From: Desulfovibrionales bacterium
GTDB lineage: Bacteria; Desulfobacterota; QYQD01
DNA: 64,000 nt
Direction of reading: 5' to 3'
Assembly (NCBI GenBank): GCA_028715605.1
Contig: JAQURM010000003.1
Location: 98,810 to 162,809, forward strand
Shown here: in pieces, positions 1,663-16,820 of the stretch
How the letters are laid out: every line of letters starts with the position of its first letter
Numbering within the stretch: the stretch's first letter is position 1
The notes under the pieces: model-generated
Told to the model about the DNA's origin: nothing
Databases searched by the model: none
What the model saw: the letters and a program-made list of their open reading frames with translations, nothing else
Made by a program: the position numbers and the translations under genes

Positions 1663-2493
1663 ATGCGTTCTATTATTAAAGCGGCATTTAAATACATAAA
1701 TTCGTCAAATCCCCCTGTATCCCCCTTTATCAAAGGGGGACTTGACGGGATCCCCCCTTTAACAAAGGGACAAGCTAAAATCCCCCCTTTGGGAAAGGGG
1801 GGTGAGGGGGGATTTAGGCTTTTTAATTGCCGTAGCTATATCTCCTGGGCCTTTGTACTATGCTGGATCCTTTTGTGCCTGGGCTGCGGAAAACTACCGG
1901 AAATCGTCATCCTTCACGATCCGCTCACGGCGGAGGAACACAATAATCTGGGCGTGTCCTATGAGGCGCGCGGAGAATATAGTTTAGCAGAGCGCGAGTA
2001 TAAAGAGGCATTAAAGATAAGGAAAGACCTCTTTTGCGCCCAATTTAACATCGGGAACCTCTACTTAAAGACGGGACAGGAAAACGAGGCGGAAGATGCC
2101 TACAAGAAGGCGATAGCCCTTGATCCCGCACAGCCTGATATTTATAACAATCTGGCCCATCTTTATCTTCAGAGCGGCCGCCATCCGGATGAAGCGCAAA
2201 AAATGGCTGAAAAGGCCGTGAGCTTATCCGGCCCTACGCCTCGGCGTGTCTTCGAGCGGCGCTATCGTTATCTGGATACATTAGGCATGGCTTATCTTGG
2301 TCAGGGAGAGGTTGATAAGGCGCTCCGGTGTTTAGAGGAGGCGCTTGACATTGCGCCGGCTGAGGATAATGCCTTTCTGGTTGAGGTCTATAGACATCTG
2401 GCCGGGGCCTGTCGGATAAAAGGGGACGAAGTCCAGGCAAAAAAATATCTGGATAAGGCCCTGGAGTTGACAAAAAAAGGCCGTTCTCTTTAA
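1663..2493 (+). CDS. TPR-repeat protein; the N-terminal 50 codons overlap a palindromic repeat element, so the start is uncertain
   Basis: Multiple TPR motifs (NNLGVSYEARGEYSLAEREYKEAL, YNNLAHLYLQSG and others). Residues 10-50 are encoded by repeat family 1 (PPVSPFIKGG...GKGGEGGF). No in-frame ATG precedes the hydrophobic LLCLGCG segment. Confidence 0.65.
   Translation: MRSIIKAAFKYINSSNPPVSPFIKGGLDGIPPLTKGQAKIPPLGKGGEGGFRLFNCRSYISWAFVLCWILLCLGCGKLPEIVILHDPLTAEEHNNLGVSYEARGEYSLAEREYKEALKIRKDLFCAQFNIGNLYLKTGQENEAEDAYKKAIALDPAQPDIYNNLAHLYLQSGRHPDEAQKMAEKAVSLSGPTPRRVFERRYRYLDTLGMAYLGQGEVDKALRCLEEALDIAPAEDNAFLVEVYRHLAGACRIKGDEVQAKKYLDKALELTKKGRSL
1708..1814. repeat. Dispersed palindromic repeat family 1 (units CCCCCTTT-N-AAAGGGGG), copy a
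   Basis: aaatccccctgtatccccctttatcaaaggggga...tccccccttt gggaaaggggggtgaggggggatt. Related copies lie at 6073, 6569, 8811 and 16745. Confidence 0.85.
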
Positions 2494-2537
2494 GTTATTT
2501 ATCTAACTGCCGATAAAACAATAAAGGAGGCAGGGCC

Positions 2538-2990
2538 ATGAAGATAAAAGAGACAGTAACCCATTTGCCTGGCGGGGCCGGCCGGTTAAAGCCCGGGGAA
2601 AAAACAGAAGGGGCGTCCTTTCGGGATGTCTTTTCCAAAGTTGCGGGGAAGGCGGATCAAACGCCTGTGAGCGCAGGGCTAAACAATGCGGCGCCGCTTT
2701 CTTCTATTGATGCGCTGGCCGCTCCGGGGACAGATACCAGGCTCCGGGGAGTGGCCAGGGCAGAGGAATTGATTGCCCTTCTGGATCAATACCGTATGGC
2801 CCTTGCTGATCCAAAGAAAACCCTGAAAGATGCCGGTCTCCTGCTTGATTCGGCTGGTGAGAAGGTCAGACAACTTGATCCTGTTATCCAGGGATTGCCT
2901 TCAGGCGACCCGCTCAAAAGGCTTCTGAATGAAACAGGGGTTATTATTGCGGTTGAGACCATTAAATTCAATAGAGGCGACTATCTTTAA
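2538..2990 (+). CDS. Hypothetical protein (150 aa)
   Basis: Strong RBS AAAGGAGG sits 8 nt upstream of the ATG. No confident family assignment. Confidence 0.5.
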   Translation: MKIKETVTHLPGGAGRLKPGEKTEGASFRDVFSKVAGKADQTPVSAGLNNAAPLSSIDALAAPGTDTRLRGVARAEELIALLDQYRMALADPKKTLKDAGLLLDSAGEKVRQLDPVIQGLPSGDPLKRLLNETGVIIAVETIKFNRGDYL

Positions 2991-3010
2991 TACCAGGTTG
3001 CAATCCTTTC

Positions 3011-3409
3011 TTACCCCTCAATGACCTTAACATAAACCTTCCGGGTGCGCGGGCCGTCAAATTCGCAGAAGAAGATGCTCTGCCACGTTCCCAGCAAGAA
3101 CTTACCTGATTCTACAATTACCTTTACCGAAGAGCCCATGATACTGGCCTTTATATGGGCCGGCGAGTTGCCCTCAGCGTGACGGTAGGGGAAACGAAAA
3201 GGTATTACCTCATTCAGGACGGCCAGGATGTCCGTTTGCACACTTGGATCCGCCCCTTCATTAATGGTAACCCCGGCGGTGGTATGGGGGATAAAGATAC
3301 AACATAGACCGTCCTGAATCCCCTTTTCCTTTAAAACCCGCTCTACCTGACCGGTTATATCTATCAGCTCAGTCTGATTTGTCGTCTTTATAGTGATAGC
3401 GGAAGTCAT
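3011..3409 (-). CDS. YjbQ/UPF0047 family protein (secondary thiamine-phosphate synthase-like)
   Basis: Characteristic sequence IFIPHTTAGVTINEGADPSV...HIKASIMGSSV...GTWQSIFFCEFDGPR. Confidence 0.85.
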   Translation of the reverse strand: MTSAITIKTTNQTELIDITGQVERVLKEKGIQDGLCCIFIPHTTAGVTINEGADPSVQTDILAVLNEVIPFRFPYRHAEGNSPAHIKASIMGSSVKVIVESGKFLLGTWQSIFFCEFDGPRTRKVYVKVIEG

Positions 3410-3427
3410 GGATGTGTTTCCCGTAAT

Positions 3428-3522
3428 TGTTCACCGTTCACTGTTGACCGTTCACCGAAAAGACGTTCCTCGCGCTTTTCAGGTTCTTGCAGTCAACGGT
3501 GAACGGATAACGGTGAACGATT
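3428..3522. repeat. Dispersed inverted-repeat element family 2 (GTTCACCGTTCACTGTTGACCGTTCACCG ... CGGTGAACGGATAACGGTGAACG), copy a
   Basis: Imperfect inverted repeat of about 95 bp. Related copies lie at 22424-22552 and 26524-26600. Confidence 0.8.
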
Positions 3523-3537
3523 ACTTTCCTTAAGATG

Positions 3538-4605
3538 TCAGTTTTGGTCCCCGGCTACCGGTAATCTGACCACTACGGTGGTGCCTTTCCCGGCCTCACT
3601 TTCGATGTGGATGGTACCGTTTGCCCCGGTTACTATCTGATAAGCCGTCCATAAACCAAGCCCCGGAGACTGGGTCCCTTTTGTAGTGAAGAAAGGCAGA
3701 AAGACCCTGGGGATATCTTCGCGCGTGATTCCTGATCCCTGATCGATAAATCGAATCTCGACCATGTCCTGATCCTTGATCCGGTTTATGTTAACCTCAA
3801 TACTTCCTTGGCCGTCCATGGCTTCAACGGCATTCTGCACGATTTTTTCAAAGGCCAGAGAGATATTGCTTAATGCCTTCACGGATAGGGTCTGCCCGTC
3901 ACCGGTAACCTTTATGGTGAATGGCGCAAATTTTTTTCTGAGTGAGGAGAAAATAAAGGGAATATCTGCCGTAAATAACTCTTCTTTTTTGACGTAGGAA
4001 GTAACCATAAGAAGTTCGTTGACTACTTCCGTGACGCGCAGCGCGGCCTCAACAACAGATTTTAAGCGGTCTCTGGCCTTCTCCACCTCACTATGCTGCA
4101 GATGTTCGAGGGCAAGGTCCCCCAGGGCCACTACTGTGGTTATCCTGTTGTTCAATGTGTCGGCTAACCCCCGCACCAGGTCCAGCAGGGCATCCTGCTT
4201 CTCCTTTTCCTTGGCTATCCTTCCCAGTTGCTGCCTGTCCAGGGCCCGTTGCACCTTGAAGAGGAGATCAGCCTGTTCACAGGGTTTAAGGATGTAGTCC
4301 ATGGCCCCGGCATACATGGCATTTACGGCCGTCTCAACGGAGGAATGCCCGGTTATCATGAGGACCACCGATTCCGGCGAGATCTTTTTGGCCTCTTTAA
4401 GCAGGGTGAGACCGTCCATGCCATCCATGACCAGGTCAGTAAGGATGAGGTTATAAAACTCACGGCCCAGGCTGGCCAGGGCCTCTTTGCCGCCGGCGAC
4501 CGGCGTGACTTGATACCCGTCTCGTTCCAGCATGCTGGTCAGGATATCCAGCGTGAGCTTGTCATCATCTACAACCAGGATTTTTTGGGGCGCTGTATCG
4601 GCCAT
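3538..4605 (-). CDS. Response-regulator receiver domain fused to a histidine-kinase ATPase domain (hybrid sensor kinase/regulator)
   Basis: N-terminal REC (KILVVDDD...LTDLVMDGMDG...KP). C-terminal HATPase_c (N box, QNAVEAM; G boxes DQGSGI, GLGLW). Confidence 0.8.
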   Translation of the reverse strand: MADTAPQKILVVDDDKLTLDILTSMLERDGYQVTPVAGGKEALASLGREFYNLILTDLVMDGMDGLTLLKEAKKISPESVVLMITGHSSVETAVNAMYAGAMDYILKPCEQADLLFKVQRALDRQQLGRIAKEKEKQDALLDLVRGLADTLNNRITTVVALGDLALEHLQHSEVEKARDRLKSVVEAALRVTEVVNELLMVTSYVKKEELFTADIPFIFSSLRKKFAPFTIKVTGDGQTLSVKALSNISLAFEKIVQNAVEAMDGQGSIEVNINRIKDQDMVEIRFIDQGSGITREDIPRVFLPFFTTKGTQSPGLGLWTAYQIVTGANGTIHIESEAGKGTTVVVRLPVAGDQN

Positions 4606-4784
4606 ATTTTTACCTGATGGATTGTATCAATATTATGGGTATTTGGATTCCATGTCAAGAAGTCTGTTTTTGTATTTTTTTAGGGATTCCCTAAAAAAAG
4701 GAAACTCCGGATCTAATTTTTACCTTGACGTATGGGCAGTTTAGTGAGAATTAATTTATAAGGACCGGGAAAGGTAACAATTAT

Positions 4785-5990
4785 ATGGACTCTGAGCCCG
4801 TTTTTAAAAGCGACATCTTAAAGGCCCGTACACAGCGGCTCCAGGAAAAGATGCGGGCGCAAGGCATCGCTGGAGCCCTTATAAGACAGAATGCAGACCT
4901 TTACTATTTTAGCGGCACGATGCAGGAGGCTTATCTTTTTGTGCCCCTGAGCGGCTCACCCCTTCTCATGGTCAGACGCAACCTGGAACGGGCGAGAGCG
5001 GAGTCTTCCCTTGAAAACGTTATACCGCTTGGCGGTGTGCGGGGGATTCCCAAGGCGATAGCCGGGCATGGTTATGATGTCCCAGGGCTTTTGGGCCTGG
5101 AAATGGATGTCATCCCGGCCAAGCTATTTCTTTATTTAAGGGATGACGTATTTCCGGGAGTGAAAATAGCAGACATTTCTCATGCGATTCGCGAGGCGCG
5201 GATGCTCAAATCTCCCCTGGAGATAGAATGGATGCGGCAGGCTGCCGAACAACTGAACAGCGTCATTAAAGAGGTGCCGGATTTATTGCGGCCGGGAATG
5301 ACCGAACTGGAACTTTCCATTGAGCTTGAATACCGGCTCCGCCGGGCCGGCCACCAGGGATTTATGCGTATGCGAGCCTGGAACCAGGAACTTTTTTTTG
5401 GGCACATACTATCCGGGCCGTCCGGCGCGGAACCTTCTTATTTTAAGGGGGCCACAGGAGGCAGGGGTATCAATCCGGCCTTTAGCCAGGGGGCGTCAAG
5501 TAAGGTTATCTCTGTGGGGGAGCCTGTTAGTGTTGACCTGGGAGGATGTGTAAATGGTTATATGACCGACCAGACCAGGATGTTTGCCCTCGGTTTCCTG
5601 CCCGAGGAGTTGAAAAAGGCTTATGAGGCGGTCATTGAGATACACTATGGACTCCGGAAAAAGATAAGGGTAGGCGAGACCTGCGGCCGCATCTATGAAT
5701 GGGCCTCTGACAAGGCGGCCTCTCTGGGTTATGCGGACAACTTTATGGGATATGGAGAGGCTAAGATGCCGTTTATCGGTCACGGCATAGGGTTGGAAGT
5801 AGATGAGCTGCCGGTTTTTTCGGCCCGGAATCCTATGCGGCTTGAGGCCGGGATGACTTTTGCCATCGAGCCTAAGTTCATCTTCCCCGGAGTAGGGCAC
5901 ATAGGCGTTGAAGATACCTATGTTCTCACGCCGAAGGGCCTTGAGGCGATCACCACGTCACCGGACAGGCTGATGATTATTGACGTTTAG
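4785..5990 (+). CDS. M24 family Xaa-Pro aminopeptidase/creatinase-like peptidase
   Basis: Creatinase_N-like N-terminus and an M24 core with HGIGLEVDELP and metal-binding D/H/E motifs. Confidence 0.85.
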   Translation: MDSEPVFKSDILKARTQRLQEKMRAQGIAGALIRQNADLYYFSGTMQEAYLFVPLSGSPLLMVRRNLERARAESSLENVIPLGGVRGIPKAIAGHGYDVPGLLGLEMDVIPAKLFLYLRDDVFPGVKIADISHAIREARMLKSPLEIEWMRQAAEQLNSVIKEVPDLLRPGMTELELSIELEYRLRRAGHQGFMRMRAWNQELFFGHILSGPSGAEPSYFKGATGGRGINPAFSQGASSKVISVGEPVSVDLGGCVNGYMTDQTRMFALGFLPEELKKAYEAVIEIHYGLRKKIRVGETCGRIYEWASDKAASLGYADNFMGYGEAKMPFIGHGIGLEVDELPVFSARNPMRLEAGMTFAIEPKFIFPGVGHIGVEDTYVLTPKGLEAITTSPDRLMIIDV

Positions 5991-6072
5991 AGGCCTTGAA
6001 AGAGGGGTATTATCCATCCGGTGTCAATATTCTGAATTCTGTATCAGTTTAGCTGGTTGAAAGAGTATTCTA

Positions 6073-6150
6073 AAATCCCTCCCACCCTCCCTTTTTCAAA
6101 GGGAGGAGAAACGCTTCCCCCTTTGGGAAAGGGGGATTGAGGGGGATTTT
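6073..6150. repeat. Repeat family 1, copy b (CCCTCCC/GGGAGG subtype)
   Basis: aatccctcccaccctccctttttcaaagggaggagaaacgcttccccctttgggaaagggggattgagggggatttt. Near-identical to the copy at 16745-16820. Confidence 0.85.
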
Positions 6151-6192
6151 GGCCCTTATAGAGCGCCTTGCTTAGGCATATTTTTCAAAAAC

Positions 6193-7020
6193 CTAAAGTG
6201 TTACTGAATTCCGACTCCTGCATTCCGAATTCTGTATGATAAGCGGTATTTTCTCACCAAGCAACGCCACCCGAAGCCACCTGCACGCAAACTTAAAGAG
6301 AGAAAGTTCGTCTTGTAACGCCGTCCTTATCTCTTCGCCCTTAAGTTTGTATGTATCCAGGAAGCCTTGTCTGCACACCAGTTGAGCGAATTCGTCCAGG
6401 CTGTAACTGGCGAGAAAGAACATCTGTATGCCTGTTTTGTCCAGACCGCCGGCGGGGAACCTCTCGCTAAGGGTTACCTGGGACCACAGGTCGTTCATCT
6501 CTTCGTAAACAGCCGTCCCTTGTCTTTCCCTCCATGTCCTTACGGTTAACAAGTTATCTTCTTCCGGGAATCCCCCTGTATCTCCCTTTTCCAAAGGGGG
6601 ATTTTTTCCATTAAAGCCCAGGCAAAACGGCCGCTTAACTACTGAATACAAGGGGGTTGCTGGTTTGCTGTCCCTGGTTTTGTCAACGCATGGTTCCAGC
6701 GGAAAGATGCGGCATGACCAGGGACGGTCCGGATATACCCGGCATCCATCCGGACCGGAGAATGGACAGCGTTTTTCATCGCCGGTCATCTTCATTACCA
6801 CCAGGGGGTGGCCGATTTCTTCCATATAGAGGGCTGTGGTATAGCGGTCAAGGAATTCCCTTGAGGAAAGAGAAAGATTCCTTTTCAGCCGCATTATGTC
6901 ATAAGGCGTGAGGAAAAGGTTGATATCCCGGCAGCACCGGTTGAAGCAGTCCAAGCCCTTCCGGCAGTCAAAGGGGAATATGTCATCGAGAGTAAGTGTA
7001 AGACTTTCATCCATTGCCAT
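6193..7020 (-). CDS. YkgJ-family (UPF0153) Cys-cluster protein carrying an in-frame repeat-derived insertion
   Basis: FDCRKGLDCFNRCCRD Cys cluster and CPF..GCR..P..C motifs. The segment NPPLEKGDTGGF is encoded by repeat family 1 at 6569-6607. Confidence 0.7.
   Translation of the reverse strand: MAMDESLTLTLDDIFPFDCRKGLDCFNRCCRDINLFLTPYDIMRLKRNLSLSSREFLDRYTTALYMEEIGHPLVVMKMTGDEKRCPFSGPDGCRVYPDRPWSCRIFPLEPCVDKTRDSKPATPLYSVVKRPFCLGFNGKNPPLEKGDTGGFPEEDNLLTVRTWRERQGTAVYEEMNDLWSQVTLSERFPAGGLDKTGIQMFFLASYSLDEFAQLVCRQGFLDTYKLKGEEIRTALQDELSLFKFACRWLRVALLGEKIPLIIQNSECRSRNSVTL
6569..6607. repeat. Repeat family 1, short copy c, lying inside a CDS
   Basis: aatccccctgtatctcccttttccaaagggggatttttt, in-frame within the ykgJ-like gene. 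Confidence 0.8.
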
Positions 7021-7114
7021 GTCCTCAATTCAATAGCCAAAGTTAGAAGCCGTGGAGACAGGAGACAGAACACAGAATACAGAATACAGAATTATTCTGT
7101 CTTCTGACTTCTGA

Positions 7115-7498
7115 CTACTCAGTTTTTACCGCAATAAAGGCCATCTCTACCCGCGCGTCTTTAGGCAACCCGGAAACCTCCACTGTGGCCCTGGCCGGCG
7201 GATCGTCTTTAAAGAATTCACTATAGACGGCATTCATGGCGGCAAAGTCATCCAAATCTCTCAGATAGACAGTAGCCTGAACCACATCCGCATAGCCCAT
7301 ACCTGCCGCCCTTAATATCGCCCCAAGGTTTTTCAGAATCTGTCCGGTCTCGGCGGCTATATCTACATTGACCATCTCTCCGGTGACCGGGTCAAGGGCG
7401 ATCTGTCCGGAGATGAATAACTGGCCGCCGGCCATGACCGCCTGACTATATGGCCCTATGGCCTCCGGGGCCTCTTTTGTAGTAATGATCTTTTTCAT
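7115..7498 (-). CDS. ridA: RidA (YjgF/TdcF) family reactive-intermediate deaminase
   Basis: APEAIGPYSQAV...GQIALDP..G...A.VTVYL.D..DF..MN.VY. Typical 127-aa length. Confidence 0.9.
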   Translation of the reverse strand: MKKIITTKEAPEAIGPYSQAVMAGGQLFISGQIALDPVTGEMVNVDIAAETGQILKNLGAILRAAGMGYADVVQATVYLRDLDDFAAMNAVYSEFFKDDPPARATVEVSGLPKDARVEMAFIAVKTE

Positions 7499-7584
7499 CT
7501 TTTTTCCCTATCAGGACGTCCGCCTGGGCGGACAGATATGCGCAGAAAATTTTTCAAATTATCTTTCTATATTTAAAATCCTGG

Positions 7585-7810
7585 TAACACGTTAGGTGTT
7601 TGAAACAGTCCTACATTCAGAAAAGGCTATTAATCTGGAACTCACAACCTCATGAAAAGAAGATACAAAAATCTCACTTCAATTTGGAACTCATGAACTC
7701 ATGAAAAACAGAGCAACCAGAAGCCGAACTGCTGAAAATCAATTTCTCAAAAATACTTTCCTGATTTCCTGAGTTCCTGATTAAAACGTCTTCCTGAATT
7801 CCTGATTTGA
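7585..7810. repeat. MITE-like element family 3 (termini GTAACACnTTAGGTGTTTGAAAC...; internal TTCCTGAGTTCCTGATTAAAACGTCTTCCTGAA)
   Basis: Shares its arms with the inverted copy at 24855-25000. Solo termini lie at 6184-6200 and 16848-16868. Confidence 0.75.
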
Positions 7811-7879
7811 TATGTTTTTTGCACTTTTTATCATGTATTTTCAAAATGCTAACTTGTTACAAATCCTGTAAATCTGCGT

Positions 7880-8542
7880 TCATCTGCGTCCAATGTCCTG
7901 CTTTGATTCGAGAAGTTTCCTCCCCCGGGCGAGAAGACCATAGGTAAGGATACCGGCAAGCACCACTATGTCTTCCGTAGGGAGGAAGGAAGGGATCGTT
8001 TCATCAAAGAGGATGTTTCCTTCTGCCGGAAATTCGTCATCCCCCTGCCAGAGTACAAAGGCCAGGGGTATATTGGGGAGCGGACGACATACGAGCGAGA
8101 TGTCGCCCAGCCCAATAGAGGACAGGGTTGGCAGCCCCTTGGAAAATTTCCGCAATATCTCCGGGTGACGGCCAAAGAAACCGGTGAAAGGCTTAATACA
8201 CCTCTTGACGAAAGGTTCGTAGTAAAACATGCCCGATGGGATCTGCCGGAAGGTTATCCAGTTTTCCGTGATCGGGACTCCCCGGGCGTGTATCAGGTAA
8301 TGGAGGATAACGATTTGTTCCGTTGGTTTTAGCGCTTTTGGACCGGTGATAACCTCGATTTCCACTTCCGGGAAGCGGATGGCGCACTCTCCAGCCCAGA
8401 AAGTGAGATGGAGGAGCCCTTCGCCCCGGGCGTTTCCTTCCCATCTGCCGCCGGTTCTTATGGAGATTGGTTCCGGCTCCATCACGGCCAATGTTTTCCT
8501 GGCTAACGAGATCGATTCCTGGTAAGCCTCTTCAAAAGGCAT
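7880..8542 (-). CDS. Conserved hypothetical protein (220 aa)
   Basis: Clean ORF ending before the miaA region. No motif I can assign with confidence. Confidence 0.5.
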   Translation of the reverse strand: MPFEEAYQESISLARKTLAVMEPEPISIRTGGRWEGNARGEGLLHLTFWAGECAIRFPEVEIEVITGPKALKPTEQIVILHYLIHARGVPITENWITFRQIPSGMFYYEPFVKRCIKPFTGFFGRHPEILRKFSKGLPTLSSIGLGDISLVCRPLPNIPLAFVLWQGDDEFPAEGNILFDETIPSFLPTEDIVVLAGILTYGLLARGRKLLESKQDIGRR

Positions 8543-8640
8543 GTTTCACCTGAAAATATGCTCACCGCAAAGGCGCAAAGGGCGCAGAGAAAAATATGCT
8601 TTTCTCTGCGATCTCTGTGTGCTCTATGGTGAACAAGTTT

Positions 8641-9714
8641 TTACGATTTCTGCAAAAACAACCTTACCTGCCGGGAGATGCCGGATACATCCGACGGCGC
8701 ATACCACCTTATCTCCGGGTCGCCCCTGAACCACGTCAACTGTCTCTTGGCATAACGCCTGGTGTCCCGGATCATGGTGCGCAGCATCTCATCAAAGGTA
8801 TATTCACCTAAAAATCCCCCTGTATCCCCCTTTTTCAAAGGGGGACTTAACGTATCCCCCCCTTTAGTAAAGGGGGGTGAGGGGGGATTGCCTTCATTTT
8901 CGAGATACCGGATGACGTGCCGATAGCCGAGAGACTGCATGGGTTTGAGGTCTTTAGCGTAACCGGCCGCAAGAAGTCCCCTGACCTCATCAATCAGGCC
9001 CGCCTCCAACATCTCATGTGCGCGAATCTCGATCCTTTCATAAAGCTTATCACGCTCGAGTTCAAGTCCTATTTTTAACGTGTCATATTTGCTGTCGCTA
9101 AACTCATGCTCGGATTGATAAACTGAAATAGGTTTGCCGGTCAGGCGGAATACCTCGATGGCCCGCAAGACGCGCACCTTATCATGGCTGTGGATTTTCT
9201 CAGCGGCCTCCGGATCCGCCTCTTTCAATTCCGCATAGAGGCGGTCCGGGCCATTTTTTTCCATTTCGTTACGTAACGTCCGGCGTATGGCCTCGTCTGC
9301 AGCCGGAAGATAAAAAAGACCGCGCGTCAAGGCCTTGATATAAAGACCGGTTCCTCCGACCACGAAGGCGCATTTCTCCCGCCCGTATATATCCCGGATA
9401 GCCTCTTTCGCATCCTGACAGTAGCGGGCGGCATTATACACCTCATCCGGATAGACGATATCCAGGAGATGGTGCGGCGCCAGTTTTCTTTCCTCTGGTG
9501 AAGGCTTGGCCGTGCCGATGTCCATCAGCTTATAAATCTGCATGGAATCGGCATTTATGATCTCACCGCCGAACTTCCGGGCCAGCGCAATGGACAGGCC
9601 GGTCTTTCCAACTCCCGTTGGCCCGGCAATGATAATCAGCGTCAGTTTTTTATTTACGCTTGAAGCCTTTTTCCAATTCATAGTACGTGTAGAGCTGTTG
9701 GATGGGCCGGCCAT
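8641..9714 (-). CDS. miaA: tRNA dimethylallyltransferase MiaA with a roughly 26-aa repeat-derived insertion
   Basis: P-loop IIIAGPTGVGKT, DSMQIY and TRRYAKRQLTWFR motifs. The NPPSPPFTKGGDTLSPPLKKGDTGGF segment between YLENEG and EYTFDEM is encoded by repeat family 1 (8811-8889). Overlaps the mutL 3' end. Confidence 0.9.
   Translation of the reverse strand: MAGPSNSSTRTMNWKKASSVNKKLTLIIIAGPTGVGKTGLSIALARKFGGEIINADSMQIYKLMDIGTAKPSPEERKLAPHHLLDIVYPDEVYNAARYCQDAKEAIRDIYGREKCAFVVGGTGLYIKALTRGLFYLPAADEAIRRTLRNEMEKNGPDRLYAELKEADPEAAEKIHSHDKVRVLRAIEVFRLTGKPISVYQSEHEFSDSKYDTLKIGLELERDKLYERIEIRAHEMLEAGLIDEVRGLLAAGYAKDLKPMQSLGYRHVIRYLENEGNPPSPPFTKGGDTLSPPLKKGDTGGFLGEYTFDEMLRTMIRDTRRYAKRQLTWFRGDPEIRWYAPSDVSGISRQVRLFLQKS
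8811..8889. repeat. Repeat family 1, copy d, inside miaA
   Basis: aaaaatccccctgtatccccctttttcaaagggggacttaacgtatcccccctttagtaaaggggggtgaggggggatt. Confidence 0.85.
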
Positions 9715-11410
9715 GCGGGCAGTTTGAAGAAATGGGACAGGAGTTAAGCTGCTGCAAAAGGCTCTCCATCTCCTCGACCGTCAGCGGTTGTCCGGCTTTT
9801 ATGGCGGCGTGGCAGGCCATGAGGGCCAGAATATCATTAAGGAGTCTTTCGTCCAGAAACGAGCCTCCGGCAGTGGCCATGATAGCCAGGGCCGATTCCA
9901 CCAATCCCTTTATATCCCGGTTGGCGAGTATGGCGGGCGCAGCCCGGATGACAAAGGTTTCTCCGCCAAACGGGGCTATCTCCATCCCCAATGCGGCAAA
10001 ATCCGCGAGATGCCCGGATAAGGCCTCTCTTTCGGATCGGGCCAGTTCAAGGGTTACAGGAAAGAGGAGTTGCTGGCTATCAATTCCACCCTTCCGGAGT
10101 CTGTCTTTGAAACTCTCAAAAAGGATGCGTTCGTGAGCGGCATGCTGGTCGATGATAATCAGCCCTTCTTCCGACTGGCAAAGGAGGTAGCTTGCGGCCA
10201 ACTGGCCGATAAGTCGCAAATCAGAAGGTGAGGGTTGGGTCAACGGGAGAGAGCCGGTGTATGGAGCCGCTTTTTCCTGCACGCTGGCCCCGGCCTTTAG
10301 CGGTTCTTCAGAGAAGAGACCCTGTGTCTGATGGACAGCCACGCCGCAGGCAGATTTATCAGGTTCTCTATATGGCTCCCATGAGCGGTGCGTCTCGGCC
10401 GGTCCCGGCCCGCCGATTTTTTGCCGGGAGAGAATGGCCGCGCGGATGCCTTCACTGACTATCTGATGTATCAATTTGGGTTCCTTGAAACGAACCTCAT
10501 GTTTGGTCGGGTGCACGTTTACATCCACCCCGGCTGGAGGAAGCGTTACGTAGAGGGCTCCGACCGGATAGCGTCCCTTCATAAGGAAGCTTCCGTAGGC
10601 CTCGAGGACGGCATGCTGGATGATCCGGTCACGTACAAAACGCCCGTTGATAAAGATGCAGAGGGACCGTAAAGAGGCCCGGTTTATCTCCGGCCCGGCT
10701 ATATAACCGGAGAGGGCTATCTCTCCGCGGGCATTTGACACCGGGATCAGTTTACTGCTGTGGTCAAGATGAAATATGGCCTGCAGGCGATCTTCGAGCC
10801 TTTCGCCGGATGAGGTGGTGAACACCCCGCGCCCATCATTAGAGAAGATAAATTGCACGGCGCAGGCGGCAAGCGCTATATGCTCGACGACGTCCTGGAT
10901 ATGTCCGGTCTCCGTGTCGTATGACTTAAGGAACTTCCGGCGGGCCGGCAGGTTGCCGAAGAGATCCCTTACTTCAACTACTGTCCCTTCCGGGCAGCCC
11001 GTTTCCAGGACTTCTTTTATGCGGCCATAATGGATGGTAACCCGATGCCCGGATAGATCCCCGCGGCGGCGGGATATCAAGGCCATCCTGGAGACGGAGG
11101 CGATGCTGGGCAGGGCCTCTCCCCTGAATCCCAGGGTATTAATGTGGAACAGGTCCGTATCAGTCGCAATCTTGCTGGTGGCGTGGCGTTCCAGGGAAAG
11201 GAGGATGTCCTCGCGATCCATCCCCTCGCCATTATCTATGACCCGGATAAGCTGCTGTCCGCCGCCTGTTACCTCCACCTCTATGCGCTTTGCCCGGGCA
11301 TCCAGGGCGTTTTCGATGAGTTCTTTCACCACCGAGGCCGGGCGTTCGATGACCTCTCCGGCCGCAATCTGATTGGCAAGGGATTCATAGAGTATCTTTA
11401 TCTTAGCCAA
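9650..11410 (-). CDS. mutL: DNA mismatch repair protein MutL
   Basis: N-terminal GHKL ATPase (LANQIAAGEVIERPASVVKELIENALDA, DNGEGM), a transducer domain and a C-terminal dimerisation domain. mutL-miaA synteny is conserved. Confidence 0.95.
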   Translation of the reverse strand: MAKIKILYESLANQIAAGEVIERPASVVKELIENALDARAKRIEVEVTGGGQQLIRVIDNGEGMDREDILLSLERHATSKIATDTDLFHINTLGFRGEALPSIASVSRMALISRRRGDLSGHRVTIHYGRIKEVLETGCPEGTVVEVRDLFGNLPARRKFLKSYDTETGHIQDVVEHIALAACAVQFIFSNDGRGVFTTSSGERLEDRLQAIFHLDHSSKLIPVSNARGEIALSGYIAGPEINRASLRSLCIFINGRFVRDRIIQHAVLEAYGSFLMKGRYPVGALYVTLPPAGVDVNVHPTKHEVRFKEPKLIHQIVSEGIRAAILSRQKIGGPGPAETHRSWEPYREPDKSACGVAVHQTQGLFSEEPLKAGASVQEKAAPYTGSLPLTQPSPSDLRLIGQLAASYLLCQSEEGLIIIDQHAAHERILFESFKDRLRKGGIDSQQLLFPVTLELARSEREALSGHLADFAALGMEIAPFGGETFVIRAAPAILANRDIKGLVESALAIMATAGGSFLDERLLNDILALMACHAAIKAGQPLTVEEMESLLQQLNSCPISSNCPHGRPIQQLYTYYELEKGFKRK

Positions 11411-11558
11411 AGGTTTGATAATCTCGTAACAAGTAAAATTTTACCGCAGAGGTCGCCGAGAACGCTGAGATAACATATTGAATGATTTACGATTTTTCTC
11501 TACGGACTCTGCGTGCTCAGCGGTGAAAAAGTTTTTTTACGAAGCCGTCAAAGGTTGC

Positions 11559-12923
11559 TCAGTTGGATAATTTTAAAAGGACATTATCCTGGATCCAGTG
11601 CTCATCCCACCACTCGACCGGATTGACAAATGTTCCGCCTACCAGCATGGAAAAGTGGAGGTGGTCGCCGCCGGCCAGACCGGTAGATCCTGAACAGCCC
11701 AACACCATCCCCTTTTCTACCATCTGCCCGGGAGCGACATTGATGCTGCTTAAGTGGGCATACAGGCTGAAGATCCCCTGCCCGTGGTCCATGATAACGG
11801 TATTCCCGTAAATACCGAGGTATCCGGTAAAGATAATCTTGCCGGTATTGGCGGCCTGGATGGGCGCCCGTTCGTTTGAGGCCAAATCAATACCCAGATG
11901 GACAGCATGGTCTATTTCCTGCCCGTTGTAGGTGTAGATACGCTGATCGGCAAAGAGGCCCATGGGCGCTGCGTTTTGCATACGCAGAAATGCCCCGGTC
12001 CAGAGCGGCCCGGCCTCAGAACGGGAACAGATCTCCGCCACTTTGCGGTCATTTTCAACCCTGATTTTGTGGTTAACCTGCACAAAGACCTCTTCATAGC
12101 TCCCTTTGAGGTCTGGATAATGTTGCATAAGCTCCGGCATCTTGGTCTGCAGAAAGGCCGGAGAGAGAGCGATTTTATCTGCCCTGAACCGGCGGGTTTT
12201 TATACGATACGTAAAGGGCACCCGTGCCGTATTGCCGGCCTCGTCGCGAGCGGCAAGGTATAGGGGAACATTGGCACGCCCTGGCGCATCTGCGACTGGA
12301 GCGTCCCACGGCAGGGCGAAATAGGCCACATAAACACCTTTAGGGCCTTCCGGCTTTGGATACCCGCGATAGAATTTCGGGCCCACATAGACACCGCTCA
12401 CCGGAACATCATCCTCTGTCTGATAGACTACAAGCCCGCTGCCCCCCAGATTGATATTATGAGCGGCGCTCAGGGCATAAACGTCAGGCGGCCTGCTGTC
12501 AATGGAGACTTTTTTATCTATGATGCGCCTGTTGCCTGAAAACCATCCCCACCATGAATAATCCCGGACCGATACCCGGAGAAGGGCCTCACCATTAACC
12601 AGCCCCGCGCCAAGGGGGCGAAGCGTTACAGGCATAGAGTGGCCTTTTACGTTCCCTCTCAAAAGCAGGCCTCCTTTGGGAAAAGACTGCCTTGCCATTT
12701 CTACCTTTTTACCCCCTTGGAGAAGGGTTACTTCTATTTCCCTGAGTCCGCTCAGCCTGTCTTTAGCGGTAATGGTTATAGTCTTTTCCATGCCTACGCG
12801 CCTGACATCAGGCGCAATGCGCACCTCCGGCTTAAAAAATTCGAATTTTAATGCAGCTACTGCAAGTATTAAAAAGAATATTAGTAGTCCAAATACAGCG
12901 ATGGAAAAGCGGGATTTAGGCAT
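11559..12923 (-). CDS. M23 family metallopeptidase (LytM-like) with N-terminal TM anchor
   Basis: HLGIDLA...G....G..GN.V.I.HG.G..S.YAHL..... and GDHLHF motifs. Confidence 0.85.
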   Translation of the reverse strand: MPKSRFSIAVFGLLIFFLILAVAALKFEFFKPEVRIAPDVRRVGMEKTITITAKDRLSGLREIEVTLLQGGKKVEMARQSFPKGGLLLRGNVKGHSMPVTLRPLGAGLVNGEALLRVSVRDYSWWGWFSGNRRIIDKKVSIDSRPPDVYALSAAHNINLGGSGLVVYQTEDDVPVSGVYVGPKFYRGYPKPEGPKGVYVAYFALPWDAPVADAPGRANVPLYLAARDEAGNTARVPFTYRIKTRRFRADKIALSPAFLQTKMPELMQHYPDLKGSYEEVFVQVNHKIRVENDRKVAEICSRSEAGPLWTGAFLRMQNAAPMGLFADQRIYTYNGQEIDHAVHLGIDLASNERAPIQAANTGKIIFTGYLGIYGNTVIMDHGQGIFSLYAHLSSINVAPGQMVEKGMVLGCSGSTGLAGGDHLHFSMLVGGTFVNPVEWWDEHWIQDNVLLKLSN

Positions 12924-13129
12924 AAGGCGAGATTTACTCCTTTTGGGCTGTTATAACTTATGAAACTATACTGAAACAGGCAAAACGTCAAGTGGCACGA
13001 GATTCCACATCCCGGGATAGAAAATCGTCATTGCGAGTCCGCCGCAGATGGGCAAGGAGAACGTGGGGCGTCAGGACAGGAAAAATACACGCAAGGGCAA
13101 GAAGAAGTAAAAAGATGGTTTCCAAGAAA

Positions 13130-13168
13130 GTGGAACTATTTTCCATAAAAGTGGAACTATTTTTCCAC
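13130..13168 (+). promoter_or_regulatory. Tandem palindromic upstream activator sites (TGGAA-N5/6-TTCCA x2), likely enhancer-binding-protein sites
   Basis: tggaactattttcca and gtggaactatttttccac lie about 105-140 bp upstream of a -24/-12 promoter. A paralogous pair lies at 14648-14686. Confidence 0.6.
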
Positions 13169-13271
13169 TAAAGAGAAAACCTTTTCCATTCAGCCAAAAA
13201 ATTGATCCACCATCGCCTACGCTAACTATCCGTAAATAATATATTTTTTATTTTAAAAAGGTTTTGTGCAT

Positions 13272-13287
13272 CTGGCATACAAATTGC
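13272..13287 (+). promoter_or_regulatory. Sigma-54 (-24/-12) promoter TGGCAT-N5-TTGCT
   Basis: ctggcatacaaattgctt matches the TGGCAC-N5-TTGCW consensus, about 70 bp upstream of the PEP-CTERM gene start. Confidence 0.7.
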
Positions 13288-13359
13288 TTAATTATTGAAG
13301 CACAATTCACTTTGAAGATATGGTTCTGAGAAATTTTAAATGGGAGGAGGTGAAAAAGG

Positions 13360-14235
13360 ATGAAAAAGCTCTTGATGTTTTTGTGCGTCGTGTCCCTCGT
13401 AGCGCTTTGGGCTCCGGCATTTGCTTTGACGGTAACGCCGCTGGACAGCGCCGGTAATTTAGCCCAAAGTCTTGTGGGGCCGGGGGTCACAATATCGAAT
13501 GTTACTTATACGGGAGCAAACGCTGCATCGGGATATTTTACGGGTGGCCTTGCCGCTGGAATTGGCATCCAAAGCGGTATTGTTTTGACCTCTGGGTACG
13601 CTTCCAATCTGAATGGCACATCTAATACTTCAGACGCTATAACGGGTAATAATGGTTTAGCGGGTGCCGCCATGCTTAATGCTTTGATCCCTGGGTATAG
13701 CACATATGATGCCACCATTCTGGGGTTTGACTTCGTAAGTGCCGGGAACTCAGCTTATTTCAATTATGTCTTTGGTTCTGACGAGTATAATGAATGGGTT
13801 GCTTCAAGTTATAATGACGTGTTTGGTTTCTTTTTCAACGGAACGGCTGTTTCAGACAATGTAGCGCTCATTCCAGGGACAACGACAGCAGTTGCCATCA
13901 ACAATGTGAACAATGGATCCAACTCTCTCTATTATAACGATAATGATCCTGGTGACCTATCTCCGATTCCATTTGCTTTTGAATATGACGGGTTCACCGA
14001 CGTGTTTACCGCCAGCATACTAGGGCTGACTGCTGGGAATACATATCATCTGACATTGGCCATAGCCGATGCCGGTGATAGCGTTTTGGATTCCGGCGTT
14101 TTCTTACAGGCAAAAAGTTTTTCTCAAAATCCTGTGAATCCAGATGTCCCGGAGCCCGCGACCATGGTGTTGCTTGGTTCCGGTCTGGTTAGTCTGGCCG
14201 GGTTTGGACGGAAGAAGCTTTTCAAGAAAGGCTAA
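13360..14235 (+). CDS. PEP-CTERM sorting-domain secreted protein (choice-of-anchor-like beta-rich domain)
   Basis: RBS GGGAGGAGG. Signal peptide. C-terminal VPEPATMVLLGSGLVSLAGFGRKK is a PEP-CTERM motif (PEP, TM helix, basic tail). Confidence 0.8.
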   Translation: MKKLLMFLCVVSLVALWAPAFALTVTPLDSAGNLAQSLVGPGVTISNVTYTGANAASGYFTGGLAAGIGIQSGIVLTSGYASNLNGTSNTSDAITGNNGLAGAAMLNALIPGYSTYDATILGFDFVSAGNSAYFNYVFGSDEYNEWVASSYNDVFGFFFNGTAVSDNVALIPGTTTAVAINNVNNGSNSLYYNDNDPGDLSPIPFAFEYDGFTDVFTASILGLTAGNTYHLTLAIADAGDSVLDSGVFLQAKSFSQNPVNPDVPEPATMVLLGSGLVSLAGFGRKKLFKKG

Positions 14236-14262
14236 AAAAGAGATAATCAAAAACCATAAAAA

Positions 14263-14296
14263 GCCACCTCGGGGGAATCCCCAAGGTGGCTTTTAT
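14263..14296 (+). terminator. Rho-independent terminator
   Basis: gccacctcggggg aat ccccaaggtggc followed by ttttat. Confidence 0.7.
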
Positions 14297-14647
14297 ATTC
14301 TATGATGCTTTTCTTAGATTTCTTTAGTTTCAGAGTCAAGCGTTTCATTATACCAACTATCTCCGTAATGTCTCATCGGTTAACTTAATTCCATCTATCT
14401 CCATAAGCTTCTCAGATACCGGCATTAGTCCAAATCCTTGGGCTTCGCATTTCCTCCCTTTGGCAGATGGAGGGTAGGAGGGATTTTAAATAATGTTTTT
14501 TGCGCAAAATTGCTATCTTAAAGATCACATCGAGTCATGGTTATCAGGGGTGATTCATTCGCCTCTGGGCAGGGAGAACGCGGGGCATCAGGATAGAAAA
14601 AATATACGCAAGTGCAAAAAAAGAATTGAAAAGGTAGTTTACAAAAA

Positions 14648-14686
14648 TTGGAACTATTTTTCACAAAAGTGGAAATACTTTTCCAC
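14648..14686 (+). promoter_or_regulatory. Tandem palindromic upstream activator sites (paralogous to 13130-13168)
   Basis: ttggaactatttttcaca and gtggaaatacttttccac (a perfect GTGGAAA..TTTCCAC palindrome). Confidence 0.6.
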
Positions 14687-14708
14687 TCAAGAGAAAATTT
14701 TGTGTATC

Positions 14709-14724
14709 TGGCATAAAGATTGCT
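14709..14724 (+). promoter_or_regulatory. Sigma-54 (-24/-12) promoter TGGCAT-N5-TTGCT
   Basis: ctggcataaagattgctt. The flanking 250 bp are paralogous to the 13060-13330 region. Confidence 0.7.
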
Positions 14725-14785
14725 TATTGTTGAGTCACAATTCATTTTGATTAGATATGGTCTCATAAATTTTAGATAGAAGAAG

Positions 14786-15367
14786 ATGAAAAAGATAATA
14801 TTATTAATCGGTTTTGCAGTAATGTTGGTATTTGTAAGTGTCGCCCATGCGGCTCCTGTCGTAGATATTATCCAGGCTCCTACTGGATATTTTGTGCCTA
14901 CAGATGCGCAAAAGTATGATTATCCGTATTATCGCTGGTATGGCGAAGATTGGGGTTGGACACACAACGCCATTAGCGGGTCCATTACATCTGCGACTTT
15001 GAACATTAGTGCATTTGATGTGGATTATTCATCGGGTGAGCTGGATGAGATTTTCGCTTGGGACAGTGGTGCGTGGAGTTCACTCGGGTTTTTGACTGGT
15101 GTAGATGATGATTGGTCTTATGCGACATTTACATTGGGGTCGAGTTTCTTCGATGATATTGGTGCTGGTCTTCAAGTTTTTATGAAAATAGATACCGCTG
15201 ATGAGGGATGGGCTGTTACGCTTGCCAAATCAGTTCTTTCAGTCGATGGAGGTACGTTACCCAATCCCGATCCCAATCCTGTCCCCGAACCCTGTACCAT
15301 GATTCTCTTCGGTACTGGTATAGCGGGAGCTGCGGGCTTACTGAGAAAGAGGAGTAAGAAAAGTTAA
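14786..15367 (+). CDS. PEP-CTERM sorting-domain secreted protein
   Basis: Signal peptide (AVMLVFVSVAHA). C-terminal PVPEPCTMILFGTGIAGAAGLLRKRSKK is a PEP-CTERM motif. Confidence 0.75.
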   Translation: MKKIILLIGFAVMLVFVSVAHAAPVVDIIQAPTGYFVPTDAQKYDYPYYRWYGEDWGWTHNAISGSITSATLNISAFDVDYSSGELDEIFAWDSGAWSSLGFLTGVDDDWSYATFTLGSSFFDDIGAGLQVFMKIDTADEGWAVTLAKSVLSVDGGTLPNPDPNPVPEPCTMILFGTGIAGAAGLLRKRSKKS

Positions 15368-15400
15368 CCGGTACATTTGCACAATTATGTTAATTAAAAA

Positions 15401-15433
15401 AGGGCACGACCAAGACGGAGTGCCCTTTTTTGT
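15401..15433. terminator. Hairpin terminator (possibly bidirectional, between the convergent PEP-CTERM and dinB genes)
   Basis: agggcac gaccaagacggag tgccct followed by tttttgtg. Confidence 0.6.
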
Positions 15434-15449
15434 GTATGCTAAAAGGTAA

Positions 15450-16619
15450 TCAGGTCAGGCTCCGTCCCCGTTTTATGATCCCCGGCCCCAGTTTTTCCCG
15501 AATCCGGTCAATTGCATAATCGACTCGTTCCAGTTTCTCCATCTCTTTTTCCAGGCCGGGGAGGAGAGAATATTGCTGCCCTCCGCCAAAATTGGAGACG
15601 GCCAGCCCAATCAACCGCACGGGCGTCTTCAAATTATACCGTTCGAGAAGCATTACGGCGGTGTCATAGAGGATTTTAGTCGCACACGTGGCCTCTTTAA
15701 GGCTGTGGCTTCTGGTCACCAGGGTAAAGTCGCTGTGTTTCAGCTTTAAGGTTATGGTACTTCCTTTTAGACCATGCCTGCGCAGCCGTTCCCCCACCTC
15801 TTCTGCCTGGGACAGGAGCTGCTTCTTAAGGATATTAATATCGGTTGTGTCCTCGGGGAGGGTATCTTCGCTGCCCATGGATTTGGCCGGCCAGGGCCGA
15901 CCTATGGCCGGGATGCAAGGGATAACCGGTGAATCGTCGATTCCCTGGGCCAATTCCACCAGGCGCAGGCCATATTTGCCGAATTTTCTTTCCAATACCC
16001 CGGGCGGGAAGCTCAGAATATCAGAAACAATGCGGATTCCCAGCCCTCGGAGCGCCTCTTCAGATTTAGGGCCGATGCCGGGCAGTTTGCCGACCGACAG
16101 GTCTTTCAAAAAACTCTGCACCTCTTCCGGTACGATCGTCAGCCCGTCAGGCTTTTGCAGGTCAGAGGCTATCTTGGCCAGAAACTTATTGGGGGCAATA
16201 CCAGTAGAGCAGGTCAGGCATGCCTCGGCGTATATTCTCTCTTTAATTTTACGAGCGGCCTGCGTAGCGTCCCCATGCAGCCTTTCCGTGCCGGTGAGAT
16301 CGACAAAGGCCTCGTCTATGGATACCTGCTCGACCAGCGGCGATACGGCCTCCAGTACAGCCATCACTTTTTGTGATATCTCCTGGTATCTTTCCATCCT
16401 GACCGGTAAGAAGATACCCTGCGGGCACCGCCTTTTGGCCTCGAAGATAGGCATGGCCGACCGCACACCGTATTTCCGGGCCTCGTAAGAGGCGGTAGAG
16501 ACGACGCCTCGTTTTGCGCCGCCCACGATAACCGGTTTGCCCTTAAGCGCGGGATTATCGGCCTGCTCCACTGCGGCAAAAAAGGCATCCATATCCATGT
16601 GCAGGATAGTGCGGGGCAT
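15450..16619 (-). CDS. dinB: DNA polymerase IV (Y-family translesion polymerase)
   Basis: ILHMDMDAFFAAVE, SIDEAFLD, and HhH/little-finger regions. Confidence 0.9.
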   Translation of the reverse strand: MPRTILHMDMDAFFAAVEQADNPALKGKPVIVGGAKRGVVSTASYEARKYGVRSAMPIFEAKRRCPQGIFLPVRMERYQEISQKVMAVLEAVSPLVEQVSIDEAFVDLTGTERLHGDATQAARKIKERIYAEACLTCSTGIAPNKFLAKIASDLQKPDGLTIVPEEVQSFLKDLSVGKLPGIGPKSEEALRGLGIRIVSDILSFPPGVLERKFGKYGLRLVELAQGIDDSPVIPCIPAIGRPWPAKSMGSEDTLPEDTTDINILKKQLLSQAEEVGERLRRHGLKGSTITLKLKHSDFTLVTRSHSLKEATCATKILYDTAVMLLERYNLKTPVRLIGLAVSNFGGGQQYSLLPGLEKEMEKLERVDYAIDRIREKLGPGIIKRGRSLT

Positions 16620-16744
16620 TTTTTATTTATTTGCTCCTAACGCGGATACGTCATAGGCGGAGAACCAAATTTGCCACGAAGACACAAAGGCACGCATGTC
16701 TTCCGCGCATCTGCAAAAGGAAGCTGTTTGAAAAAGTATTTTAG

Positions 16745-16820
16745 AATCCCTCCCAACCTCCCTTTTCCAAAGGGAGGAGAAACACTTCCCCCTTTGAAAA
16801 GGGGGATCAAGGGGGATTTT
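16745..16820. repeat. Repeat family 1, copy e (CCCTCCC subtype)
   Basis: aatccctcccaacctcccttttccaaagggaggagaaacacttccccctttgaaaagggggatcaagggggatttt. Confidence 0.85.

Follow-up and report, generated by a model that had tools for sequence, protein, structure and literature searches.

The window analysed here is a stretch of 64,000 nucleotides from a Desulfovibrionales bacterium (assembly GCA_028715605.1, contig JAQURM010000003.1, positions 98,810 to 162,809 of the forward strand). The host is a Thermodesulfobacteriota relative, and syntenic contigs were recovered at 88-95% DNA identity. A short palindromic repeat occurs at five sites of the window. Three of them lie inside the open reading frames (ORFs) of host genes, which encode a TPR-repeat protein, a YkgJ-family CxxCxxCC protein and the tRNA dimethylallyltransferase MiaA, and two lie between genes. 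We consider it likely that all five are non-autonomous copies of a small mobile palindromic element of a pan-bacterial superfamily, for which we infer a DUF559 gene as partner.

The motif CCCCCTTT-N(1-30)-AAAGGGGG has six matches in the window, compared with 0.00 expected from shuffles that preserve dinucleotide composition. Five sites were read directly from the sequence (Table 1) and were also returned by repeat finding, which placed the copies in families D2, D4 and D5, and by fuzzy search. A profile of 362 distinct units from other loci matched the same five sites and no others in the 64 kb. The five copies listed in a preliminary description, which a model had made from the letters of the sequence, are thus real, and a decayed sixth can be added. 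All six lie in positions 1-17000, and the remaining 47 kb (17001-64000) contain none. No Rfam family reached the gathering threshold in the window.

The building block of the repeat is a unit of about 35 nt with the layout AATCCCCC(Y)-NNN-(Y)CCCCCTTT-NNN-AAAGGGGG(R), i.e. AATCCCCC-N5-CCCCCTTT-N3-AAAGGGGG, in which the 5' part AATCCCCC(Y) is a duplicate of the left arm of the hairpin. Units measure 32-45 nt. In a full element (43-110 nt), a short variable spacer separates a forward from an inverted unit, and the ends read AATCCCCC...GGGGGATT. In the 362 distinct units, the base 5' of CCCCCTTT covaries with the base 3' of AAAGGGGG (T:A 236 times, C:G 104 times), and this ninth stem pair is of the Watson-Crick type in 340 units where 202 are expected (p = 3e-82). 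Positions further outward show no pairing in the same units, and the hairpin therefore comprises 9 bp with a 3-nt loop. The full copies in the window each fold as one long hairpin, with energies of -44 to -64 kcal/mol and z scores of -3.6 to -4.6. Structure prediction, in which the copies fold far better than shuffled sequences, and the covariation of the stem both bear out the palindromic character that had been claimed for the family.

A design that keeps the element open in six frames was considered and rejected: complete elements have 3.2 of 6 frames open on average, random genomic segments 3.3, and element lengths show no bias toward multiples of three. The copies found in frame are survivors of selection. 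New copies would land anywhere, and those inside a gene would survive only if the added length were a multiple of three, the frame stayed open and the site tolerated a loop. The runs of C, T, A and G are read as Pro, Phe/Leu, Lys and Gly, so that the product gains a flexible segment of the form NPPxPPFxKGG...GGF, as in the three host proteins of the window.

Table 1. Host genes, repeat copies, insertions and carrier elements in the window (MITE, miniature inverted-repeat transposable element)
Feature	Position	Strand	Evidence and remarks
TPR-repeat protein (host gene 1)	1663..2493	+	Pfam TPR families; N-terminal comparison
TPR insertion block	1677..1843	+	167 nt vs 11 nt in L001/L004; net +156 nt (52 codons)
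Copy 1, 108-nt palindrome (forward unit, partial middle hairpin, inverted unit)	1708..1815	.	in TPR ORF; -63.7 kcal/mol, z = -3.6
MITE A, carrier of copy 2	6041..6204	.	terminal inverted repeats 6041-6062 and 6183-6204
Copy 2, CTCCC/CCCCC-subtype palindromic core	6073..6150	.	intergenic, between convergent genes; -51.1 kcal/mol, z = -4.6
YkgJ-family CxxCxxCC protein (host gene 2)	6193..7020	-	Pfam PF03692; alignment
YkgJ-like insertion block	6561..6608		net +45 nt (15 codons)
Copy 3, single 35-nt unit	6569..6603	.	in YkgJ-like ORF
MITE B, same ends, different core	7584-7860		perfect 8-bp target duplication AAATCCTG
miaA, tRNA dimethylallyltransferase (host gene 3)	8641..9714	-	Pfam IPPT 2.8e-87; alignment to homologues
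MiaA 30-codon insertion EGNPPSPPFTKGGDTLSPPLKKGDTGGFLG (EG...LG)	8806..8895	-	ortholog alignment; short direct repeat (A/G)TGAA on both sides
Copy 4, 80-nt palindrome (forward unit, 12-nt spacer, inverted unit)	8811..8890	.	in miaA; -48.4 kcal/mol, z = -3.8
Decayed single unit, CTCCC subtype	14454..14485	-	fuzzy search; orthologous copy in L001 intact
MITE C, carrier of copy 5	16713..16871	.	right repeat 16850-16871 intact, left 16713-16734 degenerate
Copy 5, palindromic core	16745..16820	.	intergenic, downstream of der/engA, upstream of dinB; -44.6 kcal/mol, z = -3.9
MITE D, same ends, different core	24838-24998		perfect 8-bp target duplication GGGGTTCC

Judged by alignment of the sequences, all three copies inside ORFs are derived in-frame insertions, because the sites are empty in orthologues that are 80-91% identical. 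The preliminary description had already placed three copies in frame, and the alignments agree with it on this point while correcting it in several details. The MiaA insertion is carried by the window, by P0001-3 and by L125. It is missing from P0004 (91% identical), P0005, P0006 and all more distant homologues, in which the flanks are joined exactly. When the protein is aligned to the solved MiaA structure from Bacillus (2qgn), residues 273 and 303 of the query both fall on residue 252, i.e. the flanks are contiguous there. The insertion was thus correctly described as separating segments that adjoin elsewhere, but its length is 30 codons and not 26. In the AlphaFold model, residues 276-302 form a coil with a pLDDT (predicted local distance difference test) score < 50 between the helices 262-273 and 307-330, and the insert is modelled as a disordered inter-helix loop. 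The longest miaA ORF begins 11 codons upstream of the start that all homologues use (MNWKK); from the alignment, the true start is probably the Met at 9681.

The insertion in the YkgJ-like protein is carried by the window and by P0121-125. P0126 and P0127 (80-81% identical) and everything further away have the empty site, which is also seen in the DNA of L125 and L126. An insertion at this place had been proposed before and stands, with its extent corrected to that given in Table 1. In the TPR gene, an imperfect direct repeat, CGTTCTATTAT / CGTAGCTATAT, borders the insertion block. The start of this gene, MRSII, is kept in relatives, and the element follows residue 5 and precedes the hydrophobic segment LCWILLCLGCG; the earlier view that the element forms the N-terminus of the protein is therefore not tenable. 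All four combinations of presence and absence of the miaA and ykgJ inserts are found among the relatives.

The history of the MiaA insert was read from a tree built without the insert columns. In this tree, the empty P0004 is sister to the filled P0001 (bootstrap 0.85), and the empty P0005 and P0006 are together sister to the filled L125 (bootstrap 0.93); both groups lie inside a clade with 100% support. The filled copies have their spacer sequence in common and thus a single origin. Given the pairing of empty with filled sisters, the simplest history is a single gain with at least two later, precise losses, and recombination is the alternative. Empty miaA alleles read GAAAATGAATAT or GAAGATGAATAC, and in filled alleles the insert stands between two copies of (A/G)TGAA. 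Comparable short and imperfect direct repeats flank the other two in-gene inserts. Precise loss would proceed by slippage between such repeats across the palindrome.

A comparison of the five orthologous miaA copies shows variation in only 3 of 66 columns of arms and loop, against 32 of 104 four-fold degenerate sites in the flanks (p = 2.5e-5); in the 12-nt spacer, 10 of the 12 columns vary. Since the arms vary far less than four-fold sites, they are held constant by something besides the genetic code, which may be structure or recognition, or else homogenisation by other copies. Taken as a whole, these comparisons establish that the elements are mobile, that copies in genes are tolerated as disordered loops and can be lost cleanly, and that stem and arms are maintained.

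The two intergenic copies differ from those in genes in being cargo. Terminal repeats of 22 bp with the consensus GTAACAnnTTAGSnnTTTGAAA enclose copies 2 and 5, which are the cores of larger MITEs, so the five sites, which had been presented as one type of element, stand as sites but do not form a uniform class. With their flank, copies 5 and 2 are 88% identical. Unrelated contigs show the same core-to-repeat junction. The carrier of copy 2, MITE A, is bordered by an 8-bp target duplication, TGAATTCT (6033-6040) / TGAATTCC (6205-6212), and the intergenic region in which it lies differs throughout in the relatives L001 and L004. An 8-bp duplication is seen in MITEs A, B and D, whereas bare palindromes have only imperfect repeats of 4-11 bp, at three sites. 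The bare copies are palindromic over their whole length and have no other terminal repeats. A Pfam scan of the ORFs of the window, which covered up to ~18.6 kb, revealed no IS66 transposase.

Several further observations concern these MITEs and the other repeats of the window. The target-site region of MITE A and its right terminal repeat supply the coding sequence for the last ~14 residues of the YkgJ-like protein (IQNSECRSRNSVTL) as well as its stop codon (6193-6240); this C-terminal extension is common to P0121 and P0126, and the proteins of L001 and L004 end earlier. MITE B is missing from L001 and L004 together with the surrounding sequence. The cores of MITEs B and D are rich in GGAACTCA/TTCCTGA. 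A third palindromic intergenic repeat family has three copies (3425-3519, 22462-22527 and 26520-26594), in which the arm GTTCACCGTTCACTGTTGACCGTTCACCG faces CGGTGAACGGATAACGGTGAAC. Tandem 9-nt repeats like CAGTTCAAG occur at 30594-30678 and 50493-50550 (repeat family D1), and intergenic palindromic motifs of the type GTGGAA(N)TTCCAC (repeat family D3) at 13127-13204 and 14624-14722, near the decayed unit.

The unit is not restricted to this host. In the following, the counts of genome stretches and contigs are lower bounds, and the taxonomy of metagenome-assembled genomes is that of the deposited records. By our own arithmetic, the 24-base pattern of the unit should have ~0.01 chance matches in the genome collection. 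At least 120 genome stretches contain it, and the many phyla represented there include Nitrospirota, Desulfobacterota, Beta- and Gammaproteobacteria, Chloroflexi, a cyanobacterium and lineages of the candidate phyla radiation. Isolates of Lysobacter, Iodobacter, Pseudoxanthomonas, Thiorhodococcus and Geomesophilobacter are among the sources of these stretches. The unit is also present in at least 120 IMG/VR viral contigs and in three Acinetobacter plasmids, where the copy lies just past the 3' end of a gene. The TGTAT subfamily alone is present in at least 120 metagenome contigs with a GC content of 31-68%. Neither a BLAST search of 5,426 E. coli genomes nor a search of cultured-phage records gave a match to the variant of the window. 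A literature search by sequence strings and by in-frame and palindromic terms returned nothing that matches this repeat family. On the chromosome of a Nitrospirales bacterium (OY820905.2; L080, 5212-6280), four identical units are spaced by ~274 nt inside a larger tandem repeat.

Insertion into genes is also seen elsewhere. By a strict criterion, about a tenth to a fifth of the units lie inside long ORFs; of the 321 units that could be classified, 124 lie inside ORFs when crude calls are counted. Other proteins that host a unit in frame include UvrD, LpxK and a glycosyltransferase. An exhaustive search with the 30-aa peptide gave 14 significant proteins, which serve as examples and not as a measure of prevalence. 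In Mu-like portal proteins, the unit is found in the C-terminal linker in three different reading frames (NPPQPPFAKGG, KSPLAPLFQRGE and IPPASPPPFEKGG), at viral loci of different phage lineages (L128, L141, L244, L205, L150, L159, L208 and L202). Three frames in the same linker point to repeated, independent insertions at a tolerant spot.

No recurrent transposase was found beside the units among 4,326 neighbouring ORFs from ~360 loci, which were clustered and, in part, scanned with Pfam; the clusters consisted of phage structural genes and ordinary genes. The ORFs bracketed by two units were one insertion sequence (IS) and several DUF559 genes. DUF559/YcjD is a PD-(D/E)xK protein from the clade of Vsr and the homing endonuclease I-Bth0305I. 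In loci selected for the unit, seven of eight DUF559 genes lie within 125 nt of a unit, compared with an ORF background of 18.8% (p = 5e-5). Inverted copies of the AATCCCCC variant flank the DUF559 genes of L059, L271, L087, L295, L305, L336 and L289, with the inverted unit just upstream of the start codon and the forward unit at or after the stop.

A reciprocal set was assembled from 14 DUF559 genes of plasmid and chromid records, found by tblastn and chosen without reference to the unit. Nine of them are enclosed by inverted C-run/G-run hairpin units (Synechocystis, Pseudanabaena, Picosynechococcus, Sphingomonas, Sphingobium, Sinorhizobium, Azospirillum and two Deinococcus); in four others such units occur on one side or in a looser form, and one, a truncated gene, has none. 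DUF559 genes are thus specifically flanked by units of one common architecture, of which every lineage has a sequence variant to itself. The 3' end of ycjD in E. coli is overlapped by a 56-nt repeat, which occurs at a median of 14 places per genome. No link between DUF559 and repeats emerged from the literature that mentions DUF559, judged for the most part from titles and abstracts, and a pattern scan of IMG/VR confirmed no DUF559 relatives there.

Two of the loci with DUF559 genes deserve mention. In L271 (1-2078), an IS with DDE_Tnp_1 and DUF772 (422-1810) lies between the DUF559 gene (132-420) and the right-hand unit (1814-1845). In the Sphingomonas plasmid NZ_CP155753.1 (L372, 112149-113421), the DUF559 gene and its flanking hairpin units are found between sufB and sufC, which suggests that the cassette has been inserted into the operon.

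From these results we derive the following model. The element of the window would belong to a pan-bacterial superfamily of C-run/G-run palindromic repeats, and its partner would be a small DUF559 gene situated between two inverted units and encoding a Vsr-like PD-(D/E)xK endonuclease. This nuclease would recognise or nick extruded hairpins and in this way drive copying or homing, and short-patch correction triggered by it would keep the arms complementary. Phages may help the element to spread between phyla. The window contains no DUF559 gene, so its copies would be non-autonomous, and copies 2 and 5 ride as cargo in ordinary MITEs. A wider proposal, which we put forward tentatively and hold to be a good deal less secure than mobility of the element as such, is that DUF559 nucleases in general are the partners of the C-run/G-run repeats, in a symbiosis like that of REP and RAYT (repetitive extragenic palindromes and their associated tyrosine transposases) that would rest on a PD-(D/E)xK nickase and would include transfer across phyla, perhaps on phages, insertion into conserved genes, precise excision from them and arm correction. 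Under this proposal, and with the same reserve, the superfamily might take in the BoxC-like repeat of E. coli, the PSPxGEG-type repeats of alphaproteobacteria and cyanobacteria, and the AATCCCCC family.

A number of observations weigh against this model or parts of it. The syntenic relatives are, like the window, free of DUF559 genes, and the link to DUF559 thus rests on other genomes. This link is an association, and the activity of the nuclease on the repeats is hypothetical; the DUF559 genes could simply prefer repeats as landing sites or use them as terminators. Around DUF559 genes, the order of the units (inverted, gene, forward) is opposite to that in the dispersed elements, and the reciprocal set was scored by eye with no matched control. 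The repeat adjoining ycjD is presumably BoxC, an assumption that we base on size and copy number. With regard to the insertion mechanism, the three empty/filled pairs show direct repeats that are short (4-11 bp) and imperfect, and in 28 complete elements from many phyla, 4-6-mers shared between the two flanks were not more frequent than in shuffled pairings, i.e. exact target duplications were not enriched. The ykgJ copy, which is older, is decaying in relatives. Finally, the conservation of the arms could come from gene conversion or from constraint on the protein instead of selection for structure.

Two doubts that had been raised with the preliminary description can be dealt with briefly. 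If the Pro/Gly-rich segments were ancestral or lineage-specific features of the proteins and not derived from an element, one could understand why they are intact in several genomes and why the MiaA peptide is conserved. We regard this as very improbable, as close orthologues (80-91% identical), more distant homologues and the solved structure lack the segments, the flanks are joined exactly in the close orthologues, and the DNA is a near-perfect palindrome common to intergenic copies and hundreds of unrelated loci. It is just as improbable that the insertions are artefacts of assembly or binning at repeats. Contigs do break at the repeats, and L003 ends inside a copy, but five independent assemblies (the window, GCA_040754095.1, GCA_040755415.1, GCA_040961635.1 and JGI 3300038466) contain the miaA insert, each with substitutions of its own, and the unit is found in isolate genomes and complete plasmids as well. 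More serious is the idea that the units are functional structures, such as bidirectional terminators or mRNA-stabilising hairpins, which have spread or converged because they are useful and which entered genes by accident. Full elements are strong hairpins between an A-tract and a T-tract, several units were flagged as terminator-like, the stem covaries, and both copy 2 (between convergent genes) and the Acinetobacter plasmid copy have positions suited to a terminator. Convergent intergenic sites outnumber divergent ones by 34 to 16, but this excess is modest against a background of 213 to 161, and the 3'-end bias is weak. Convergence does not explain 24 specified bases that are identical across phyla, a terminator inside miaA would be harmful, and the large share of units inside crude ORFs (124/321) also argues against this explanation, which we consider unlikely.

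The remaining alternatives accept that the repeats move and differ in what moves them. All copies could be conventional MITEs mobilised in trans by a DDE transposase, for example an IS66-family enzyme. This fits copies 2 and 5, whose carriers have the 22-bp GTAAC repeats and, for copy 2, an 8-bp duplication; it fits the two further MITEs with the same ends and other cores, and an IS66-family element with GTAAC-type ends and an 8-bp direct repeat has been reported. The three in-gene copies, however, lack such terminal repeats and have imperfect flanking direct repeats of 4-11 bp, exact target duplications are not enriched, and no transposase family recurs beside units in ~360 loci, so that we give this explanation little credence. 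Still less probable is a REP/REPIN family mobilised by RAYT, a Y1 HUH transposase. Single units, inverted doublets that form a long hairpin and the absence of a clear target duplication are REP-like, and REP-RAYT systems likewise have a gene placed between inverted units. But the units lack a GTAG or CGTC tag, intragenic copies are numerous, the sequence is common to many phyla whereas REPs are species-specific, and the flanked gene, among neighbours of which a part was scanned with Pfam, is DUF559 and not a Y1 transposase. The alternative that we take most seriously, without thinking it probable, is that DUF559 genes are independent selfish or repair genes that settle beside palindromes or use them as insulators or terminators, and that the repeats are spread by host replication and repair or by phage-borne illegitimate recombination. 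REP-like sequences are known in the literature, also in that on QMITE2, as landing sites of ISs, and L271 carries an IS at this very spot. A single ycjD gene in E. coli stands against ~14 repeats, relatives of DUF559 act in short-patch repair, and units occur in viral contigs. On the other hand, cyanobacteria, alphaproteobacteria, Deinococcus and the AATCCCCC family all show one geometry, in which the outer ends of two inverted units enclose the gene, and the unit variants are lineage-specific, as expected of co-evolving partners. A mobile element with DUF559 as its putative partner remains the reading that we prefer.

Small palindromic repeats are among the least understood parts of bacterial genomes, and for most families, E. 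coli BoxC among them, neither a function nor a way of spreading is known. The comparison of filled and empty sites in close relatives documents an element that is inserted into conserved genes without loss of frame, is kept as a disordered loop and is lost with no scar. Unlike the usual REP or MITE families, a single 32-nt unit is found nearly unchanged in many phyla, viral contigs and plasmids. Its recurrent DUF559 neighbour makes the role of the very widespread DUF559/YcjD nuclease and the upkeep of BoxC-like repeats testable in E. coli. On the practical side, such repeats create spurious or extended ORFs, break metagenomic assemblies and add Pro/Gly-rich peptides, for which annotation and structure prediction should be prepared.

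The preliminary description had compared the repeat to the Rickettsia palindromic elements (RPEs), which are found in frame in unrelated conserved genes and of which some copies are intergenic. With regard to behaviour, this comparison is apt: the repeat of the window is also palindromic, is inserted in frame in unrelated conserved genes, adds a peptide at a tolerated surface position and has some intergenic copies. It does not extend to family membership. RPEs measure ~100-150 bp and are confined to Rickettsia (RPE-1 to RPE-10), whereas the units of the window are GC-run hairpins of 32-45 nt, have been found, besides the Thermodesulfobacteriota relative, in many other phyla, in viral contigs and on plasmids, and are set apart by size and taxon; precise loss is a further difference, documented for the repeat of the window. 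The statement that such insertions are unusual outside the Rickettsia lineage cannot be upheld, given this distribution and the in-frame MITE insertions already recorded in Coxiella (QMITE1/2), enterobacteria (ERIC/RU) and Anabaena. Those MITEs are likewise non-autonomous repeats that overlap or extend ORFs, and copies 2 and 5 also sit in true MITEs. However, they are larger and confined to a genus or species, and the in-gene copies of the window have no terminal repeats beyond the palindrome. QMITE2 is associated with direct repeats of 7-11 nt of variable sequence and contains a REP. For the ISBst12 group of the IS66 family, an element with GTAAC-type ends and an 8-bp direct repeat has been described in the literature; the four carrier MITEs, but not the palindromic cores, are similar to it in their terminal repeats and, in MITEs A, B and D, in the target duplication, which is a resemblance and no more.

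Very small mobile repeats nested in hairpins and MITE-like sequences were reportedly described in Nostoc by Elhai and colleagues in 2008; these small dispersed repeats are said to differ from the repeat of the window in sequence and host range. The BoxC repeats of E. coli have 56 bp and 22-32 copies. The repeat linked to ycjD has the layout C-run, N, C-run, hairpin, G-run, is present in multiple copies and adjoins a DUF559 gene, and it has this architecture alone in common with the element of the window, which has no sequence match in E. coli. With REPs and REPINs, the repeat shares hairpin singlets, inverted doublets that form one long hairpin, the lack of an obvious target duplication and a small nuclease gene between inverted units. 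It differs from them in the missing GTAG/CGTC tag, in the 5' extension AATCCCCC(Y)NNN of the 362 units, in its location (REPs are extragenic, whereas three of the five copies in the window lie in ORFs) and in the flanked gene, which encodes the PD-(D/E)xK protein DUF559 instead of a Y1 HUH transposase. The repeat thus resembles RPEs in its behaviour and, in its architecture, REPINs with a flanked nuclease gene.

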